The position numbers and the translations under genes are program-made. 64,000 bases of DNA. It comes from a virus. Lineage: Duplodnaviria; Caudoviricetes. Positions within the stretch are counted from its first letter, which is position 1, and every line of letters starts with the position of its first letter. The stretch spans positions 160,001 to 224,000 of the IMG/VR virus record IMGVR_UViG_3300049141_000098, one strand, 5' to 3'. Shown here one piece after another: positions 1 to 54,223 of the stretch. The notes beneath the pieces are model-generated. The model had not been told where the DNA came from and made no database searches. It saw nothing but the letters and a program-made list of their open reading frames with translations.

Positions 1-113
1 TTCCAGGTGAAGTCGGCGCCGAAGCTGCGCGCGGCCAGCGTGATGACGCCGTACTCGCCGCCCGTATCGATCCCGAGGTGGCCACTGCCGTCCTTGGCTG
101 GAACCTCCGTCAC
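1..113 (-). CDS. Hypothetical protein, partial (runs off left edge)
   Basis: GTG at 113 after GGAAGGGGAGG; open to position 1. Confidence 0.5.
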   Translation of the reverse strand, partial: MTEVPAKDGSGHLGIDTGGEYGVITLAARSFGADFTW

Positions 114-245
114 CCTCCCCTTCCAGGTAGGGGGCTGTCGGTTCGTTCGCCGCTCTCGCAGGGACTCGCTCATTACCTCCTGAACCAGGATCGTGTCGCC
201 AAGCGACGGCCACGCCTTCTCGCTCACCCTCTTCTCCCTCCTTGC

Positions 246-551
246 TCAGTAGAACTCGGGGAACTTGCGGCGGACCAGATCGGCCGCCCACTGCCGCAGA
301 GCGTCCTGGAAGTCGTCGTCGTCCACGTCGTCCGTCCACCAGTGCCGATCGTCGGCTCGATACCGCAGGCAATCGTCCACGAGTTCGAGGATCTTCTGCT
401 TCGACAGCTCCGGGAGCGATCCGTCATCGGCGAGATCGTGGTCCCGGTACTTCAGACAGAGAATGCTTTCGAAGTCTTCCGCTCCCAGACGGAAGGTCAC
501 CCGACGGTCGATCCTCTTCTTTCCGTCCCCTGACAGGGTCGGCTTCAGCAT
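246..551 (-). CDS. Hypothetical protein
   Basis: ORF track, 101 aa, in leftward gene run. Confidence 0.7.
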   Translation of the reverse strand: MLKPTLSGDGKKRIDRRVTFRLGAEDFESILCLKYRDHDLADDGSLPELSKQKILELVDDCLRYRADDRHWWTDDVDDDDFQDALRQWAADLVRRKFPEFY

Positions 552-552
552 G

Positions 553-813
553 TCAGGCGTCCTTACTCTCTAGATCCATCACCATCCGAAGCAGGTCGCC
601 CCAGCGGGCCGGGCTGGTCAGTGCGTCCTGCATGACGAGGACGGTGACGAACCGGTACGCCGTGCGGTTGGAATGACCAGCCCGTGCGGCGAACGCGATG
701 GCGGCGACGATGCCCTCGCTGCCGACGACGAGATGCCGCATGCCGTCGATGGATGTCAGAGTCAGCGGCAGCATGCCGCACCCATCACACTTCTCCTGGG
801 TTGTCTCGTTCAC
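553..813 (-). CDS. Hypothetical protein with CxxC
   Basis: Start moved to GTG 813; CDGC motif. Confidence 0.6.
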   Translation of the reverse strand: MNETTQEKCDGCGMLPLTLTSIDGMRHLVVGSEGIVAAIAFAARAGHSNRTAYRFVTVLVMQDALTSPARWGDLLRMVMDLESKDA

Positions 814-827
814 CGGCGTCGCCCCTT

Positions 828-1202
828 CTAGTCCCGGCCGCAGGTGCAGGCGTTCGGCTCGCTGACCTGGAAACCGAACCGACGACCCGCCTCGTCGTAC
901 CCCTCCTTGTAGAGGTCGTCGCCCTCGCACTCCGGGGAGTGACCGGCCCTCACGTGGCGCTGCTTTGCCTGGAAGTTGCAGGCGCTGGCCTTGATGTAGG
1001 GCTCATCCGCTGTCGCCCGCTGACTCTCGGAGTAGGCACCGGCCGTGACGACCTCGATGCAGAGGTTGTAGAAGGCGCCATCGGACAGGTCCGGCAGCTT
1101 CTGTGCCCACGCTCGAATGCGGTACTGCTCAGCCTCCGTCGCCTTCTCGAAGTCGTGCATGGCGCCCGGCCCGATCAGGTCGGACAGTGTCTCGTCAGTC
1201 AT
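828..1202 (-). CDS. Hypothetical Cys/His protein, paralog of 1195-1590
   Basis: Shared AGH..C.GD.LY..GY and CTCG motifs. Confidence 0.8.
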   Translation of the reverse strand: MTDETLSDLIGPGAMHDFEKATEAEQYRIRAWAQKLPDLSDGAFYNLCIEVVTAGAYSESQRATADEPYIKASACNFQAKQRHVRAGHSPECEGDDLYKEGYDEAGRRFGFQVSEPNACTCGRD

Positions 1203-1590
1203 CCTTCTTCTCCAGTCCGCAAGTGCAAGGTGTCGCCGGTCCGGGTTGATGCCGCTGTTCACGGAGTGCCTGGTTGTAACCCTTGGTGTACAGGGTGTCT
1301 CCACGGCAAGAGGCGTCATGTCCGGCCTCTTGATGGCGGCGCCGCCCTTCGTCGGCGCAGATATCCGCCCTGGCGTGCGTGCCCCAGGCGTTGCCCCGGT
1401 AGCCGTTCATGATGGCGGAGTCGAGGATCCGTGAGGCGCATTCGATCACGAACTCCCGGTCCGGCATCTCGCGGAGCTGTGGCACCCACTCCCGGATCTT
1501 GGGCTTGTCATAGCCCGGGGCTCTCCGGTAGTTCTGCATGGACACGACGCTGATCGAGGACTCCAGCTCCTCCTCGGTGATACTGGTCAT
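1195..1590 (-). CDS. Hypothetical Cys/His protein, paralog of 828-1202
   Basis: As above; 131 aa. Confidence 0.8.
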   Translation of the reverse strand: MTSITEEELESSISVVSMQNYRRAPGYDKPKIREWVPQLREMPDREFVIECASRILDSAIMNGYRGNAWGTHARADICADEGRRRHQEAGHDASCRGDTLYTKGYNQALREQRHQPGPATPCTCGLEKKDD

Positions 1591-1922
1591 CAGGCCTGAT
1601 ACCTCGGAGCCGTCTTCTCCAGGTAGTCGACCCAGAGACCCGGACTCTCACCTTCACCGTCGTTGAGGTACGGAGAACGCAGTTCGTCGAAGGCCTGTCG
1701 CGCCTCCCGGGTCTCACCCATGTAGCGCCGCACGTCGGCGGGCGCCTTCCAGGAGGTGGTCGGGGGCAGGCAGTCACATCGAACGCCGTTGTTGCGCAGG
1801 CTGGGGCAGCTCGACCCGTGCTCCTCCGGGGCTACCTCAATGAAGTCCATCTCCCGAAGAACCTGAAGCTTCTGTTCGGGTGACAGTCCCCTGAAGTCGA
1901 TGTTGTGCTTGAACTCGGCCAT
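1590..1922 (-). CDS. Hypothetical protein
   Basis: ORF track; SD present. Confidence 0.75.
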   Translation of the reverse strand: MAEFKHNIDFRGLSPEQKLQVLREMDFIEVAPEEHGSSCPSLRNNGVRCDCLPPTTSWKAPADVRRYMGETREARQAFDELRSPYLNDGEGESPGLWVDYLEKTAPRYQA

Positions 1923-1962
1923 CGCTTCCGTCCCCTTCCTTTCCGTTACGCCGTTGTGATGT

Positions 1963-2175
1963 TCAGTCCACGAGCCACGCGACGGCGCGCCCCTGCCGGG
2001 CCCCAGGAGAGTAGAGCCATCCGGTCATGAATCTCCGGCCGTCCTCGGTGGTGACCATGCAGTCATGCTTGGTCTTATGAGGTCGCACCGAGACGATCTG
2101 TGCCCGACGGCGGATCAGGCCACTGCGGGAGTAACGCTCGATGAGGAACCCGTCCTCGGTGAACACGGCCATCAC
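1963..2175 (-). CDS. Hypothetical protein
   Basis: ORF track; coupled overlap. Confidence 0.65.
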   Translation of the reverse strand: MMAVFTEDGFLIERYSRSGLIRRRAQIVSVRPHKTKHDCMVTTEDGRRFMTGWLYSPGARQGRAVAWLVD

Positions 2176-2681
2176 GCACGCTCCAGGATGCCAATCTTGG
2201 CGGCATCCTCGATCGTCATTTCGGTGCCGTTGTAGTGCACGGTGATCCCGCTGTGCCTACGGATGTCGAAAATGCATCCCACTGGGACCGTCAGGTGAAC
2301 CCCAGGCCCCTTCCGCTGCACCGGAGCCCCATCGACCGTGACCCGTGCACCGTCCCCAGTGACGGCGAAGTTGATGTTCCCACCCGAGACGACGGAGCGC
2401 TCTCCCGCAGCCGTAACGGATCCACCAGAGATCGACGACCCCCGATGAGAACCGAAGAGCCTGGTGACCCAGGAGATTGTGCTGGGCCTACCTACGGCGA
2501 TGCGCATCTCCCGACCTCCAGCGCCACCTGGCCCAGCGTGTGCCCCTAAGCCCCGGTCGGCCAGTACGTGCACCCGCCGGTGCGTGGCGTCCGGCTGAAC
2601 TGTGATCTCCACCGGGAGATCGGGTGCCTCAACTCGAATGGGCCCTGCTCCGGGTCGGTGGTGCGACTGGATCAGCTCCAC
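2172..2681 (-). CDS. Hypothetical Gly/Val/Ser beta-rich protein
   Basis: 169 aa, SGGSVT/SGGNIN beta-repeat-like segment. Confidence 0.7.
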   Translation of the reverse strand: MELIQSHHRPGAGPIRVEAPDLPVEITVQPDATHRRVHVLADRGLGAHAGPGGAGGREMRIAVGRPSTISWVTRLFGSHRGSSISGGSVTAAGERSVVSGGNINFAVTGDGARVTVDGAPVQRKGPGVHLTVPVGCIFDIRRHSGITVHYNGTEMTIEDAAKIGILERA

Positions 2682-2699
2682 GATCCTTCCCCTTCTTGA

Positions 2700-3077
2700 T
2701 CAGTCATTGGTGCCAAGTGCCAGTCGGCAGCCCAGCGTGAAGTGTTCAAGCGCGGCGTTCACTTCCTCCTCGGACCCGCCCCCGCGCGAGCGCGCGATGG
2801 CGGCGTCCCGGAAAGTCAGCATGCGGGCCTGGAGTTCACGGTTGCAGTGCAGCAAGGCGGTCTGGACAGCCCTGTCCAAGTCCCGGACGGGATCGGCGCT
2901 GTCGACCGTCAGGAAGGGCTGGTAGGCGACAGACCCCTTGGTGAGGACGTCGATGAAAGCCTCTTCCGCGCTGACGCTGTACTGCGGTTCGGCCTCTCCG
3001 ATCAGACGCGGCTCTTGCGGCCTCGCTGTGCTGACTTCCTTCACCCTGCGCAGCCGGTCCAGAAACTTCACAGCCAC
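2700..3077 (-). CDS. Hypothetical protein
   Basis: ORF track. Confidence 0.7.
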   Translation of the reverse strand: MAVKFLDRLRRVKEVSTARPQEPRLIGEAEPQYSVSAEEAFIDVLTKGSVAYQPFLTVDSADPVRDLDRAVQTALLHCNRELQARMLTFRDAAIARSRGGGSEEEVNAALEHFTLGCRLALGTND

Positions 3078-3081
3078 CCTC

Positions 3082-3573
3082 TCACGTGTCCAGGAAGGTC
3101 AGCAGGCGCACGGAGTTGCCGAAGGCGACCTTCAGGCGGTCCATGAGCAGGATTCCGGTAGGCGTGAGGTCGTCCCAGGTCGCCTCCCAGAACGCGCCGC
3201 CGTCTCGGGCCGCGAGCGTGCGACCGGTTGACCCCATGTCGGCCGCGAAGAGTACGGGAATCGACAGAGCTTCCTGAGAGATCAGCGATCGCACCATCGA
3301 TGCCTTCGCCGGGTATCCGTTCTGCTCCAGCAGGCGTGCTGCGTGATCCCGCGCCGCCTCGTCCTCGATCTGCCCCTTCGAGCCGCCCCAGAAGTCGCGA
3401 AGGTCGCTGACAGCGGCATCCGGCCGAGTGATGACGATGAAGTTCTCGATGGTGCACTTGTCTGGGTGGTCGTGGGGTCGAGGCAGTGCCGCCATGACGT
3501 ACATGCCGCCCCCTTCACCCGCATCCACCCACTCGGCGCCGGGTTCGGGGAAGCGGATCAACTCGTTGGTCAT
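3082..3573 (-). CDS. Hypothetical protein
   Basis: ORF track; SD GGAAGGAG. Confidence 0.75.
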   Translation of the reverse strand: MTNELIRFPEPGAEWVDAGEGGGMYVMAALPRPHDHPDKCTIENFIVITRPDAAVSDLRDFWGGSKGQIEDEAARDHAARLLEQNGYPAKASMVRSLISQEALSIPVLFAADMGSTGRTLAARDGGAFWEATWDDLTPTGILLMDRLKVAFGNSVRLLTFLDT

Positions 3574-48585: not shown

Positions 48586-50457
48586 TTACTTACCGGCCCT
48601 TGCCAGACCCTTGCGCGCAGCCTCCTGCGTGCGCTTGTCCGCCTTGCGCGGGGCGGGCTTGCGCTCACCCTTCGGCGTGAACTCCGGGCGAGGCTCGTGC
48701 GAAACCGTCCCGCCCACGTTGCCATCAGCGAACGATCCGACCGACGCGACCTTGCGAGACTCCCGACGCTCCGTTCCCGTGAGCCGGGACCCCTCGGCAA
48801 TCTCCCTGGCCTTGGACGCTTCCCGCGCTTCCTCGCGGCCCTTGAGGTATGCGCCTACCTTTGTGGAGTGACGCCGCCGCTGGGCCCGGCTCATGCCCTT
48901 GTGGGCAATGTCCTTGGGTGCCTGGCACAGTGGGCAGATTTCACCGGACACCCCGGGGTCAACTCCCGGGCGAACCGTCGCGGGAAGGCTCATGGTTCCC
49001 GCCTTACCGACCCATCCGCCGGGCCGGACCGGAGCCATGTTCTGACTCCCGGTCGTCGCGGCACCGTCCACCGAACCGTGATCCCGCTGACCCTTACCGG
49101 CGTCCGCACCCGTCCCGCGCGGGGTCACCTTGCGCTCGCCCTTGCCGTCCGCTCCCGCCCGGCGGAACGACTCACCCGGCACGGTGTGAATCGACATGAT
49201 CCACACGTCGCCCTTCTTGCGCTGGACCCGCTTCAGCTCAACGCCACGCCGACCGCACCCCTTGGGACCGTCGCACGTGATCGTCCCGCCCGTCGCGTCC
49301 TTGACCACCTTGCGCGACCGGCCGCACCGGGTCTCGGCAACGCGCCGCTTGTCCGCCGCCGCAGGGTCGCCCGGAATGGTCCCGTGTTCCACCGTGTCCA
49401 TGGACTTTGAGGACATGTGCGGGTTCGCGGGAGGGTTCACCCCGTACTCAAAGTGCGAACCGATCCGGAAGTCGTCGTCTGCCACCGTGTCCGCGAGGGG
49501 GATGTACGCGCGGCACTCCGGGCACTTCCCGTGCGTCCGCTCCGGGTTGACGATCTCCACCGGGCCCTTACCCGCGCACCCTCGATAGTCCGTGTCACCC
49601 GCACCATTCGTCCCGGACCACTGCCCCCGTCGCACCGCCGGATCCGGAAGGGACGCCACCTCCGCCGGTACGGGGTGACCGGCCGCGTAGTAAGCGGCAA
49701 CCTGGGCCCGCATCTCAGCGTGCGTCAGACCCGTGACCCCGGTCGTCTCGTCCATTCCGGGCAGGGTCGGGGCAGACTCGTCCCGCACCGCCGGAACGGT
49801 CGGACGCTTGTGACGACGCATGCCACCCTCGCGACTTACCGCGATGATCCGGTCGCAACCTTCCCCCGGGCACTTCCCAGAGTGCTTGCCGTTGTAGTCG
49901 TCCGGCACGCTCACGGTGTGGTCATCGCGCTGTACACGCGTCCCAGCCATCGGAGGCTCACCGGTCCCGTCACACCGGTCGTTCTGCGCGTCCCGCGCCG
50001 CCCGCTGTTCGGTCAGCCGCGCCCGCTCCCGGTCAACCGCCACCGTGCGCCGCGCCTTACCCTGCGCGCCCTTGGACGCCTTGACGATTTCCCGCACTTC
50101 CTCACGGGCAATCTCCCGCACTGCCGGAGCAATGTCCGCGCCCAGCTCCGGGCCACCCTCGGCACCCTCCGCGTACTGGGCATACTTAGCCTCACGCGCG
50201 GCCTCAATGTCGTTCTTCCCGCCGGTCGTGGCCAGCCACTTGACGCACCGGGCACACATTCTGTCGCCGGTGAACTTTTCCGTCAGACGCTCCGAGTCGA
50301 CACCCTTTCCGCCGCACGCCGTCCCAATCGTCCCGCCCGTCGCAAGCGGGTCATTCATCGCTCCCGCCGGAATCAGCAGCGCGTGACCCGCTCCGCTTTC
50401 GTACCCGTACATACGGGGGGTGTCATCGGCCGTGAGTGCCACAAACAGACTGGTCAT
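48586..50457 (-). CDS. 623-aa protein with repeated Zn-ribbon-like modules
   Basis: Three C.G.G...C(P)..C...H modules plus CARC and CPLC; basic tail. Confidence 0.8.
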   Translation of the reverse strand: MTSLFVALTADDTPRMYGYESGAGHALLIPAGAMNDPLATGGTIGTACGGKGVDSERLTEKFTGDRMCARCVKWLATTGGKNDIEAAREAKYAQYAEGAEGGPELGADIAPAVREIAREEVREIVKASKGAQGKARRTVAVDRERARLTEQRAARDAQNDRCDGTGEPPMAGTRVQRDDHTVSVPDDYNGKHSGKCPGEGCDRIIAVSREGGMRRHKRPTVPAVRDESAPTLPGMDETTGVTGLTHAEMRAQVAAYYAAGHPVPAEVASLPDPAVRRGQWSGTNGAGDTDYRGCAGKGPVEIVNPERTHGKCPECRAYIPLADTVADDDFRIGSHFEYGVNPPANPHMSSKSMDTVEHGTIPGDPAAADKRRVAETRCGRSRKVVKDATGGTITCDGPKGCGRRGVELKRVQRKKGDVWIMSIHTVPGESFRRAGADGKGERKVTPRGTGADAGKGQRDHGSVDGAATTGSQNMAPVRPGGWVGKAGTMSLPATVRPGVDPGVSGEICPLCQAPKDIAHKGMSRAQRRRHSTKVGAYLKGREEAREASKAREIAEGSRLTGTERRESRKVASVGSFADGNVGGTVSHEPRPEFTPKGERKPAPRKADKRTQEAARKGLARAGK

Positions 50458-50511
50458 GATCTTCCCGCTTTCCGTATCCGCGCCGCGCTTTTCGCGGCGT
50501 CTGCGATTTTC

Positions 50512-50697
50512 TTACTGCTCGACGATGTGCCGGGCGTCACTGCCCCATGCGCTACCGCGCACCCATGCCGCACTCGCCGCGTAGTCACCCAAACCGGGCC
50601 GCCGGTAAATCCGGCCGGTTTCGCTCCGGTACTCAATCGTCCCGGACTCCTTGACGATCACCGTTGCGCCATCCCGCAATGCGAGCGTAAGAGTCAT
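50512..50697 (-). CDS. First ORF of leftward block, hypothetical
   Basis: ATG 50697 after CGGAAAGGAAAAG. Confidence 0.65.
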   Translation of the reverse strand: MTLTLALRDGATVIVKESGTIEYRSETGRIYRRPGLGDYAASAAWVRGSAWGSDARHIVEQ

Positions 50698-50819
50698 CCC
50701 GCTTTTCCTTTCCGAAGCCTCCCCATGCGGAGGGCGAAACGGACACAGCTCACCCGTAATAGCGTCACGCAGGTTCTTTGCCTGCTGCCTACCGGACGTG
50801 AGTTGTCCGTTCGTGCTCA

Positions 50820-51460
50820 CCGCACGTGAGCGATAAGGGGGCGAACCGTGCGTCGTCCAGTGGAAAGCGTCCCGTTTATCGGGTCGTCTGTCCGTGCGTC
50901 GCTATCAGCGTTCGCCCCCTCCTCATGCAATCCGGTCCCGTAGGACCGGGCACGGGGCGCTAAGCGTTACCCGTGCGTCGCCGGGGGGAGTTTCTGAGGC
51001 TCCCCGTATCCGGCCGGTACCGTCGCACGTCACCCCGGTCAACCCCACGGGGGATTAGACCCGTGCCCGGAGAGTGCGTGATCATCTATGCCGTCCTCGC
51101 ATAGTGCGTTTGGTAACTCGCACCCGGGGTGAAACGGGTTCCGCTACGGACTGACTATTTCGACACGTGTTCCCGAATGCATTCCCAGGTTTCACCGCGT
51201 GGCTTGCGGATGGACTCCCTGACAAGTGGCCCGTACTTACGTGCGCCGTAACTCGCGGAGGCTGGACTAACTGACTTGACACGCTTTCCCATGACATCCC
51301 CGGATTCCCCCGCCGCGCAGGTTGCGGCTGTAAGGCATTCCGGCGAGTGGCCACGTACTCCCGTGCGCCATACCCCCGACTGACGGAAGGTTTACCCCTC
51401 CCCCAGGTGCGAGCGCCCACCGTTTCCGGCCGTGGTGGACAGTGCCGTTTGCGCCTCCCG
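50820..51460 (-). ncRNA. Candidate large structured RNA/leader with tandem duplicated domain
   Basis: Nested inverted repeats, C(UACG)G tetraloop on minus strand, repeat units 51113-51247 and 51248-51369; no credible ORF. Confidence 0.6.
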
Positions 51461-51744
51461 CGCTACCCGGTCAACCCGGGCGTTTCGCGTTCGGCTCCGA
51501 GAATCTCAAGGAACCCCATTCGGAGTTGCGAGCAACGAGACTGCCCGCGCTTCCGTCCGGCCCGCTCCCGCCCCATCGTCGTCCGGCGAACCGGTGCGTC
51601 AGAGCGAATGCGAGTGCTTGTGCTGTGCGCCCCGCGCTGCGTCCCGTAGGCGCTGCGTCGTGGCGACAACGAGAACATTGGCAGAGATGGCTGCCATTGC
51701 GTAAGCGAACAGCGCGAGCAACGGGTCTCCCGATTTGCAAACTC

Positions 51745-52497
51745 GCAGGTCAGAGCGTTGTAGCGAAGTTGATGTTGGATCCCATATCTCACGACCACAT
51801 GCACCCTGACCTGCGAAGAAGACAAGTTTGGTAACGAACAGATAACGGCCTAGGCCACACGGTATGACCTGCGACGATGCGACAAAGGTTTTTGTTTGTG
51901 CAGGTCAGAGAGGTCCCAAACTTCGAGGTCTCGCGAGTGAAACAGACAGAACGGACAAAAATTGACCAACATTTACGAGTGCTGGGGGGTATGCAAACGT
52001 CAGTGGAAAAGAGTTTCCAGAGCTGAGTGTGACCCAAGTCACACGACAATCGTCTCAGCAGTGACCAAACCGGACAGGTGCGGGGAGGGTTCCGGGCGAG
52101 TGAAAGGGGGGCGTCCCGATTCTCAAAACCAGCACTTGACCAGCAACAACACGCGTGACGTACGCGTATGTCCAGTTTGGTATGTCTGTCTATGTATGTA
52201 GTGGAAAGAAATGGAAAGTGGGATAAGGGCCTTACGCTCTGTATGGGATTGGAAGTGCTGGAATTTCTCTCGCCGGAAACCTGTACCGGACGTCAGAAAC
52301 ATGCAGGTCAGAGGCGTGTCCCGAATGTCGGAATCAGCGCTGATCATGCTGCTGAGCTGCGGGAATGCGACGTGATGACCAGGGCGCAGCACTCGGCTTG
52401 TGAGACACGCTGTCAGCAAAAGCGGAATAGCAAACACCGCAGGTCAGGCAGGGTGCGACTTGTGCTGTCTGGCGTACTGATCATGTGTCTGACCTGG
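51745..52497. repeat. GCAGGTCA iteron cluster
   Basis: Exact copies at 51745, 51807(rc), 51865(rc), 51900, 52303, 52439; variant at 52490. Confidence 0.75.
51847..51856. promoter_or_regulatory. Palindrome C10 at putative main leftward promoter
   Basis: Minus strand TTGTCG..TACCGT-GT-GGCCTAGGCC; -35/-10 spacing short (15 nt). Confidence 0.7.
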
Positions 52498-53460
52498 GGA
52501 TATGCCAGCCCTACGCGCGCGCGTGCGCTCTCCTGTCTCCCGCTCGGCCTGTCCCGAATGTCTGATACGCGACACATTGTGTGGAGTCCCGGACGCCATA
52601 GCCATACGGGGTAGGGGTATGTAAGAGATCTTGAGAGGGAGAGGTTCGAGCAGTGAGGTGGGTGGGGATGCTCGAAGGTTTGGCCAGTTCAGGGCGCAGG
52701 GTGCTGGCCAGACAGGGGACGTGACGAGACGAGACGTCTCGGAAGTGGTGACCAGGTGCACGCACGTGCGCGCGACGCACGATGCGGGCAGGCATGCGCG
52801 CGTGCCAGGCGCAGGCAGGCACGCGCGCGCGTTGCGGGCACGTTCGCGCTCGACGTTTCTCGATATCGCAGCGTGCCAGCAATGGCGACATGCGGCGCGC
52901 CTTTGTCGAGCGCCCAATGGGAGGCATGACGAGAATGGTGCGCAGCAATGCAAGAGGCCAGGCAGGGCAGGCAATGTGAGGCAGAGGGAAGTGAGCGGAA
53001 ATGCTGGAATGTCAAAGCCTCTTTCGCTGCTTTATCTCGCATTCTGTTTTGTGTAAGTCGCTGCTACACATCACACCTAGTCTGACCAGCAATGACAGGA
53101 GAGGCAGGCAGGGAAGCAGGAGGGAAAAGAACTGGAAAGGAAAGGAGTCTCGCCAATGCTCACGACTATCGCCCTATGTCAACAAAGCAGGAAAGGCAGG
53201 GCAGAAGAATGCAAGAGACAAGGCAGAGGACAAGGCAAAAGATATGCAGGGAAAAGGAAGGGGAAAGGTCTGGCTATCTCGGCAGCAATCAAAGGGATAT
53301 GAACAACTCTCTATGTCACGCCAATGCACAAGCCCTATGCGTACGAATGCATGCATGAACAGGAGAGGAATGGAAGGCAAGCGAGTGCGAGGGAAGCAGC
53401 GGAGAAAATCAGCAGACAACTCGAAAGGAATTCGAATTGAAAGATGCACTATGCAGAAAA
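52150..53460. other. Non-coding block with alternating purine-pyrimidine tracts and purine-skewed segment; possible terminus/packaging/origin region
   Basis: ACGCGCGCGCGTGCGC at about 52513, GC/GT tracts 52757-52850, A/G-rich plus strand 53090-53460. Confidence 0.5.
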
Positions 53461-53719
53461 CCAATTCTCTATAGCTATTTGGAAATGGGGCCCGGGTTAG
53501 GACTGCATGTCCGTCTACGCGTGGGCCCCGTGGGCAGTGTCCACAGCACCTCTCGATGCAGGAAATCATCCAGGAAGCGACAGACGGTGAATCCGAGTGC
53601 CAGAAAAATCCGCCGTCTGCTGCACACGTGGGCGCCCGGTGGGCTTACTTTAGTTTCATGCGAGACCGGCCCGTCAAACTACAAGATCCTTTTAGTTTGT
53701 TCTGCGTTATCGTAGGGAG

Positions 53720-54223
53720 ATGGAAACGAAGCAGGCCTACTGGCGTTCCCGGCAACCTACCCTTCCGCATCTTGGAACCGCGTGGGACGTAGGTGAAGAG
53801 TTTGGGATAAGCGGAAGGCTGATCGAAGAGTGGTGTGTCAGGTATGACAATCCAGCGTCACGACCCTCCGTCCCTGCTCAAGGAATTTTCCCTCCTCCGG
53901 TCATGCAGCTAGGAGGTCGGGACGTCTGGCTGATCGACCAGGTTCGAGAGTGGCACACATGGATGCTCGACAATGATCCGGACTTCGCCGCCTATCGAAA
54001 GCGTCGGGCTCCGCACCTTCTGTCGGCCTGGGGTGAGACAAAGTCGTATGCCGAGTGGCTGCTGGATGACCGATGCCCTCTCGTATACGTCTCGACCCTG
54101 ACGGGGAGGCTGGGTCGCGGATGGCCGCCAGAGCGCGCCGTCTCAACCCCGGTTCAACCCCAAGGCAGGTCTTCCGCTCAGAAGCCCTACACGGAGGGAG
54201 AATCCTTCGCCCGAGGCCGATAG
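53720..54223 (+). CDS. AlpA/excisionase-like HTH protein fused to a phage DNA-binding repeat
   Basis: FPPP...GGRDVW....VREW; LSAWGETKS.AEW...RL.RGW..E.A..TP. Confidence 0.7.
   Translation: METKQAYWRSRQPTLPHLGTAWDVGEEFGISGRLIEEWCVRYDNPASRPSVPAQGIFPPPVMQLGGRDVWLIDQVREWHTWMLDNDPDFAAYRKRRAPHLLSAWGETKSYAEWLLDDRCPLVYVSTLTGRLGRGWPPERAVSTPVQPQGRSSAQKPYTEGESFARGR

Follow-up and report, generated by a model that had tools for sequence, protein, structure and literature searches.

A conserved structured non-coding RNA of about 1,000 bases beside the terminal repeat in phages related to Streptomyces cluster BM

A long block without genes separates the terminal repeat from the first genes of a large phage genome, and we describe here a folded RNA that it appears to encode. 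The stretch of DNA analysed, called the window throughout, comprises 64 kb (bases 160,001–224,000) of the 259,646-bp IMG/VR virus record IMGVR_UViG_3300049141_000098, the ends of which overlap; its GC content is about 64%. Nearly all credible genes at 1–50,697 lie on the minus strand. Next to them runs a unique non-coding block of 1.56 kb (50,698–52,261), bounded on its other side by the equivalent of the terminal repeat, giving the order terminal repeat, non-coding block, leftward genes. The block holds a non-coding RNA of about 1,000 bases that was previously undescribed and unclassified. An earlier note, made from the letters of the DNA, had singled out 50820–51110 within it as a dense multi-hairpin RNA with a triplicated 10-mer, taking it for the 3' part of a leader or independent non-coding RNA of roughly 1.1 kb.

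The block is shared with a small group of Streptomyces phages. A DNA search against isolated phages matched only seven (Satis, Kradal, Quantum, EhyElimayoE, JustBecause, Kela and Frankenweenie), all of them Streptomyces phages, at 70–74% identity. In each, the match is collinear and falls in an unannotated stretch at the right end, beyond the last gene, which is the context of cluster BM. The phage of the window is a relative of the Streptomyces phages of cluster BM, among them Satis, JustBecause and Frankenweenie. Cluster BM comprises siphoviruses with very long prolate heads, genomes of 184–200 kb and direct terminal repeats of 1,049, 1,043 and 1,038 bp (PMC6687918, PMC10652959). DNA-pattern scans added five contigs from IMG/VR and several from metagenomes of soil or rhizosphere; together with three isolated phages and the window these make 14 distinct sequences, ranging from 53 to 99% identity. 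The scans did better than a search with the 623-aa protein encoded downstream of the block, which found a single locus. A conserved anchor pattern had no match in 185,579 bacterial and archaeal species genomes, and the 16 sequencing runs listed for positions 50500–52500 are all of soil or rhizosphere DNA.

Covariation across the 14 sequences argues for a conserved fold. In the minus-strand consensus the core, 50940–51125, forms 38 pairs in six helices and is 97.6% paired. Fifteen of the 38 pairs have changed on both sides, in 48 alignment cells, values that none of 500 shuffles reached; sliding the partners by 1–3 columns lowers pairing to 37–48%. Strand specificity accompanies these compensatory changes, and together they are the generic marks of a conserved structured RNA. 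Folding of the single sequence, one of the checks proposed in the earlier note, also beats shuffles on either strand (plus, −143.2 kcal/mol, z −4.4; minus, −136.2 kcal/mol, z −3.6).

The folded molecule reads in the same direction as the genes to its left. Across 50940–51125 in the 14 sequences, the consensus-fold energy is −58.4 kcal/mol for the minus strand and −38.1 for the plus strand, and canonical pairs make up 97.6% versus 89.7%. The same helices contain 47 G-U cells in the minus sense and five in the plus sense, and because of this asymmetry we take the molecule to be minus-sense. We are highly confident that the block specifies a folded minus-sense RNA.

Strand-specific structure extends well beyond the core. 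A sliding consensus-fold scan gave minus-favouring conserved structure from about 50,590 to about 51,680, a strand-symmetric signal at 51,684–51,919 and none beyond. A fold of the six sequences most similar to the window places helices with compensatory changes throughout 50,720–51,620. The RNA therefore appears to span from about 51,700, just inside a cluster of repeats, to the ribosome-binding site at about 50,710. Covariation, G-U bias, consensus energy and the sliding scan thus all favour the suggestion that 50820–51110 is the 3' part of a longer minus-strand RNA. Searches with a covariance model built on the core gave a single full-length match per related phage (130–177 bits) and no second copy in this genome, whose own copy is the most divergent (129.8 bits).

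The block does not encode a conserved protein. Codon periodicity is absent: against each of five relatives, substitutions fall evenly over the three phases and several 1-nt insertions or deletions interrupt any frame. The tblastn matches are short echoes of nucleotide similarity in multiple frames. No open frame is conserved, in line with the earlier view that the region holds no credible open reading frame. One minus-strand frame of 112 aa (51082–51420) does give tblastn E values near 1e-18 against relatives, but it too lacks codon periodicity, carries many 1-nt insertions or deletions and matches in several frames. We rejected it as, by all these signs, a spurious frame over a conserved RNA domain, one that could mislead gene callers. 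Known RNA families do not account for the block either. A cmscan of window positions 49000–54000 against Rfam 15, at E up to 10, returned only a chance match to a long non-coding RNA at 53242–53307, and four relatives scanned at E up to 1 gave no match; the comparison with Rfam and the large phage RNAs that the earlier note had suggested was thus made, and it linked the RNA to neither ROOL, GOLLD, OLE nor any other family. No tRNA or transfer-messenger RNA was found, and a full-text literature search found no description of this RNA.

The hairpins listed in the earlier note are present, and comparison separates the general from the local. The 11-bp inverted repeat at 50836–50846 and 50910–50920 is 100% complementary. 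The hairpin at 50932–50949 reads CCGGTCC-CGTA-GGACCGG, with a C(UACG)G tetraloop on the minus strand, and the stems at 50951–50975, 50985–51005, 51046–51065 and 51086–51104 occur in minimum-energy folds of both strands. The comparison resolves 50820–51110 as six consecutive predicted hairpin domains (P1–P6), the 3'-proximal third of a folded RNA of 0.9–1.0 kb. All parts are described below in RNA sense, which is that of the minus strand.

P1 to P3 supply much of the covariation in the core. P1 (51086–51104) has 6 bp and a 7-nt loop and is preceded by an invariant AACGCAC; three of its six pairs show compensatory changes (UA/CG 7:7, AU/GC 12:2, UA/CG 12:2), and the helix is 98.8% paired. P2 (51024–51078) consists of a helix (51074–51078 with 51024–51028), its continuation and a cap hairpin of variable length, of which the stem at 51046–51065 is this phage's form. 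The basal helix is CGCAC/GUGCG in the majority of sequences; three have GCAAC/GUUGC, one has UGCAC/GUGCA and one more CGCGC/GCGCG, and a further homologue outside the counted set (L028) also reads GCAAC/GUUGC. Double changes affect 8 of the 13 pairs in the two P2 helices, which are 100% and 95.5% paired. P3 (50980–51014) is a two-tier hairpin, with an outer helix (50980–50984 with 51010–51014), an inner one (50985–50991 with 50999–51005), a one-sided internal loop and an apical loop that is kept in relatives. Its helices are 100% and 98% paired, and pairs in the forms GC/GU (7:7) and AU/GU/GC (8:4:2) are canonical on the minus strand only.

P4 and P5 keep their shape while their sequences change. 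P4 (50950–50976), whose 5' arm is the third copy of the 10-mer (50971–50980), forms 12 pairs and is 91.5% paired in a dedicated alignment, against 34–53% in slid controls. One pair occurs in four forms (CG, GC, GU, UA), and the arm variants GCACGG, GGACGG and GUGCGG each come with a matching partner. The 7-bp UACG hairpin (50932–50949) is a lineage-specific insertion, found in this phage and absent from all 13 relatives; the JustBecause clade carries a different 31-nt hairpin at the same site. The stretch 50806–50950 aligns poorly across clades, and each homologue was folded separately; the order of elements is the same in all. P5 (50836–50920), a long irregular hairpin closed by the 11-bp stem, was judged from these independent folds because its arms were not aligned between clades by MAFFT over the whole region. 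It was recovered as a hairpin of 75–93 nt in every homologue, and its closing stem has five different sequences across clades (AGGGGGCGAAC, CCCGGGGGA, CCCCGGGGGA, GGGGAGCGGAC and GAGCGGGG). The first two copies of the 10-mer (50846–50855 and 50892–50901) lie on opposite arms of P5, in short helices broken by an unpaired A; single-A bulges or A·A mismatches beside C-G pairs recur in relatives. An inverted-repeat scan for links between these unpaired-A helices and the intergenic hairpins of the operon gave nothing usable.

Three further hairpins connect the RNA to the first gene. P6 (50815–50831; GCUCAC-GUGCG-GUGAGC) is a near-invariant anchor found in 12 of 13 relatives, with CAC/GUG replaced by CCC/GGG in one clade. 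P7 (50737–50812) is a long hairpin between P6 and the first gene and a candidate processing site. It shows double changes at five pairs in a 12-sequence consensus fold; in the fold of the six-sequence clade it has 20 + 9 bp, internal loops and nine compensatory pairs. P8 (50718–50735), of the CCUCC...GGAGG type, stops 3 nt short of the first gene's Shine-Dalgarno sequence. Its sequence is kept in 12 of 12 aligned homologues, where UUCGGGAAGGA and the start codon follow; one mis-anchored homologue (L020) was excluded from the P6–P8 alignment. The tips of P6 and P8 carry complementary 8-mers, CCGUGCGG (50820–50827) and CCGCACGG (50723–50730), which lie about 95 nt apart on either side of P7. Both are invariant, match at seven of eight positions in this phage and are preferentially paired in the consensus fold. 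Beside the first ribosome-binding site, they may meet as kissing loops or pair in an alternative helix.

Folded domains continue on the 5' side of P1. Directly upstream lies a twin-arm domain (51117–51413) closed by a 13-bp helix (51117–51129 with 51401–51413), which is 97% canonical with five compensatory pairs in six sequences; it is this domain that the 112-aa frame overlies. Several hairpins at 51416–51700 make up the 5' domains of the same RNA, with four to seven compensatory pairs in their helices and a minus-strand consensus energy better than that of the plus strand. Of two possible longer-range pairings, an 11-nt match between 50946–50956 and 51060–51070 has both sides in insertions specific to this phage and so lies beyond comparison; a consensus helix of AAGCGC with GUGCGUUU was dropped, as it belongs to the plus strand, which is not the folded one. 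Where the strand-specific structure ends on its 5' side, at 51655–51700, lie two small palindromes, GTCGTGGCGAC and ATGGCTGCCAT, that show no change in any of the homologues examined while their surroundings vary; a transcription start or a protein site may be placed there.

The repeated 10-mer is a local expression of a more widely used core. CCGTGCGTCG occurs exactly three times in the window, at 50846, 50892 and 50971, as the earlier note had seen. The copies all lie within 135 nt; shuffles contain 0.76 on average, and 6 of 100 contain at least three. Relatives do not keep the 10-mer as such, but its core, GACGC in RNA sense, recurs in every homologue: two to four times each in 50820–51110, 43 in total against one reverse complement (14 homologues), where shuffling of the bases leaves about 0.7 per sequence. 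Across the entire RNA each sequence holds five to eight copies and zero to two reverse complements. The earlier note had also heard in the 10-mer an echo of the CGTGCGCC ends of the tandem units. That link is reasonable insofar as GTGCG[CT] is enriched in one orientation, with nine copies at 50700–51750 (about 8–9 per kb, against about 0.6 per kb elsewhere in the window), but most copies are arms of separate helices and no single motif is conserved. Because most copies are arms of different helices, the repetition looks like one block for building stems that has been used repeatedly or duplicated, and not like a single linear motif for binding.

The genes that follow the RNA have no family match in the databases searched. 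The first leftward gene (50512–50697, minus strand) encodes 61 aa in the list of open reading frames, starting at 50697. It was detected by tblastn in Satis, JustBecause and one further homologue (L026), and the context of its ribosome-binding site repeats at the next gene. That second gene (48586–50457, minus strand) encodes the 623-aa protein, which has several CxxC-type motifs and is kept in BM phages at 39–53% identity. Neither Pfam nor PHROGs gave a match for the 623-aa, 61-aa, 206-aa or 167-aa neighbouring proteins.

Invariant repeats lie between the RNA and the terminal repeat. Copies of GCAGGTCAGAG cluster in both orientations at 51745–52313, outside the strand-specific RNA; the 259.6-kb genome has four exact copies, of which three fall there. 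The copies at 51745–51755 and 51804–51814 are the arms of a 10–12-bp hairpin, followed in relatives by a U-rich run in the minus sense; relatives also carry an AT-rich palindrome, TTTTTCGAGAAAAA, near the cluster. The zone looks like protein-binding DNA rather than part of the RNA and is a candidate replication origin, packaging site or regulatory site.

The equivalent of the terminal repeat (52262–53497, about 1.24 kb, without assigned strand) is present once in this circular-looking assembly. Positions 34–100 and 913–1067 of the Satis repeat align to window positions 52295–52361 and 53362–53515. The conserved end of the BM terminal sequence, ...GGGTCCCAGGT, corresponds to ...GGGGCCCGGGT at about 53,487–53,497, and the physical end of this phage genome is therefore probably there. 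Inside the repeat, at 52950–53400, lie purine-rich short repeats of the GGCAGG, GGAAAGG and GAATGCAAG types, where GC falls to about 53%; the terminal repeats of Satis, JustBecause and Frankenweenie are alike in character. At the left end of Satis (1–3500), the first six annotated genes, including one for a ThyX-like thymidylate synthase, lie on the minus strand and are therefore transcribed towards the left terminal repeat.

We regard the RNA as best explained overall by the untranslated 5' leader of a long early leftward transcript with roles in cis, a judgement that is evenly poised. Its parts differ in strength. Co-transcription as the 5' leader of the early leftward operon is rather probable, and a mainly cis-acting role is a more tentative proposal. 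The structure lies on the same strand as the first gene and, in all homologues, reaches to 3 nt before the Shine-Dalgarno sequence. Because it runs to the ribosome-binding site with no terminator between, the RNA is most probably made as a 5' leader, possibly one that is clipped off. Consensus scans, to which actinobacterial or phage signals may not conform, found no terminator-like site on the minus strand at 50,700–51,700. An independent non-coding RNA gene, the other possibility raised in the earlier note, finds little in its favour here, as the same scans gave neither a promoter upstream nor an intrinsic terminator before the next gene.

As a leader, the RNA could act in three steps. The GC-rich chain of stable hairpins would fold during transcription and would protect about 1 kb of untranslated RNA from Rho and ribonucleases. 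An RNA-binding factor may dock on the helices built on the recurring GACGC core, with their unpaired A. The terminal module (P6, P7 and P8) would set the point at which the leader is cut and the access to the first ribosome-binding site, through the complementary tips of P6 and P8 and through P8 holding the Shine-Dalgarno-like GGAGG against CCUCC. Sequence analysis itself establishes the conserved pairing, its strand, the lack of coding, one copy per phage, the position and the missing terminator; that the block is transcribed, and together with the genes, and that it works in these three steps, we infer.

Several observations weigh against this leader model. About 1 kb of RNA whose loops and junctions are kept across clades of 53% identity exceeds the need of a simple protective or translational leader; a defined three-dimensional fold, or a role in trans, would explain such conservation no less well. 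At the DNA level the block is conserved to an ordinary degree, 70–74% compared with 67–73% in neighbouring genes. The consensus scan found no sigma-70-like promoter in 50,400–53,800, with the same proviso about actinobacterial and phage signals, and reading the RNA-sense alignment at about 51,700–51,930 by eye disclosed no convincing −35/−10 pair. The complementary 8-mers of P6 and P8 never vary, so covariation says nothing about their pairing, which lies outside the reach of the comparison. Terminators are not enriched in the downstream operon, with one on the sense strand in 20 kb and nine in all against 8.8 expected from shuffles, which gives no hint that read-through has to be controlled.

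The same conservation can be read as that of a freed, trans-acting RNA. Cut loose from the early transcript, for instance through cleavage at P7, the RNA of about 1 kb would act as a large ornate non-coding RNA: a scaffold, decoy or sponge for a protein of host or phage, or a self-assembling particle. Made from the first DNA to be transcribed, it would act before any phage protein exists. Its layout of many domains (P1–P8, the twin arms with their 13-bp helix, the 5' domains) is kept across deep divergence together with loops and linkers, and its short motif is strand-specific in every homologue, as in protein-sponge RNAs. The long irregular P7 separates the RNA from the first gene and occupies the position that an RNase III site has in T7. 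Other large phage-borne RNAs exist, GOLLD and ROOL, which form RNA-only assemblies (PMC12286853). We nevertheless consider a trans-acting role, the main rival reading, less likely than a cis-acting one. There is no terminator, and the cleavage site in P7 is only a candidate; no partner protein was identified; similarity to GOLLD, ROOL, OLE or any other Rfam family is lacking; and, the twin-arm closing helix apart, the helices are for the most part local, strung out like beads and not closed into an intricate fold. If it were true, this would be a new class of ornate phage RNA of about 1 kb, which could, for instance as a protein-sequestering or self-assembling particle, help the phage to seize control of its Streptomyces host, or to disarm it, ahead of the first phage protein.

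Other explanations tie the structure to polymerase or to DNA. Nascent hairpins could modify RNA polymerase in the manner of HK022 put and allow it to read through more than 50 kb of hairpin-punctuated early genes. The RNA does precede a leftward array of genes that extends for 50 kb or more, and it lies on the same strand, but it is more than ten times the size of put RNA, which is about 70 nt. We downgraded antitermination as the main role because canonical terminator-like sites are not enriched on the downstream sense strand, and we now hold it improbable. More doubtful still is a replication primer or activator, resembling ColE1 RNA II or the origin transcripts of T7 and T4, that would start in the repeat cluster, persist as a hybrid and drive leftward DNA synthesis. 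The layout is origin-like, the RNA adjoining a unique cluster of invariant two-orientation repeats and, in relatives, an AT-rich palindrome. The cumulative GC skew has its minimum at about 51–52 kb, but gene orientation switches at the same place, and the minimum is therefore not independent evidence. Pfam and PHROGs searches of the neighbouring proteins identified no initiator gene nearby, and a primer would not need structure that runs into a ribosome-binding site. Least credible is an element acting as DNA near the genome end, in packaging, as an injection stop or in protein binding, with the inverted repeats as protein sites or cruciforms. The terminal repeat does have its inner edge only 1.15–1.45 kb away from the hairpins, and the nearby repeats at 51745–52313 are invariant and strand-symmetric, like protein-binding DNA. 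In 50820–51110, however, it is pairing that is conserved and not sequence, arms stand 15–110 nt apart around spacers of variable length that themselves form hairpins, and an asymmetry of 47:5 between G-U and A-C has no meaning for duplex DNA. Covariation and this asymmetry contradict the DNA-level reading, which we disfavour.

Whichever role applies, annotators of cluster BM genomes should not take the 1.5 kb at the right end to be "empty". Very few RNAs of about 1 kb are kept by covariation in bacteria or phages, and OLE, GOLLD and ROOL have each raised new questions of biochemistry or structure. The RNA described here occurs only in giant Streptomyces phages with prolate heads, and Satis, JustBecause and Frankenweenie can be cultured in the laboratory. 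Because these phages can be grown and the RNA has its place at the head of the early arm, its expression, processing, partners and necessity are directly testable.

Among known systems, the RNA shares features with several and matches none throughout. Like HK022 putL and putR, RNAs of about 70 nt with two stem-loops, it would consist of cis-acting nascent hairpins that head a phage early operon. It is set apart from them by its size and by a downstream operon with no excess of canonical terminators. The sponge RNAs CsrB and RsmZ are chains of hairpins with GGA in their loops, and they too repeat a short motif many times in one direction; here the motif is GACGC, largely inside helices with an unpaired A, and we know of no CsrA-like partner in Streptomyces or BM phages. 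GOLLD and ROOL exceed 500 nt and are multi-domain, phage-associated and conserved by covariation (PMC12286853, PMC5737381). This RNA is likewise large, multi-domain, phage-associated and covarying. It differs from them in giving no cmscan match, in its mostly local helices, in abutting a ribosome-binding site instead of tRNA genes and in its high-GC actinobacterial hosts.

The early leader of coliphage T7 offers a close parallel in position. It is an untranslated stretch of a few hundred nucleotides with the R0.3 RNase III site before the first early gene, and sites of this type are duplexes of about 20 bp or more with an internal loop. P7, as predicted from sequence alone, has 20 + 9 bp, internal loops and covariation. 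Both RNAs are untranslated, belong to the early-promoter end of the genome inward from a direct terminal repeat and place a long irregular hairpin before the first early gene. The T7 leader is not known to be a multi-domain fold maintained by evolution. Here, unlike in T7, cleavage is a prediction, and about 1 kb of covarying hairpins has been kept across clades.

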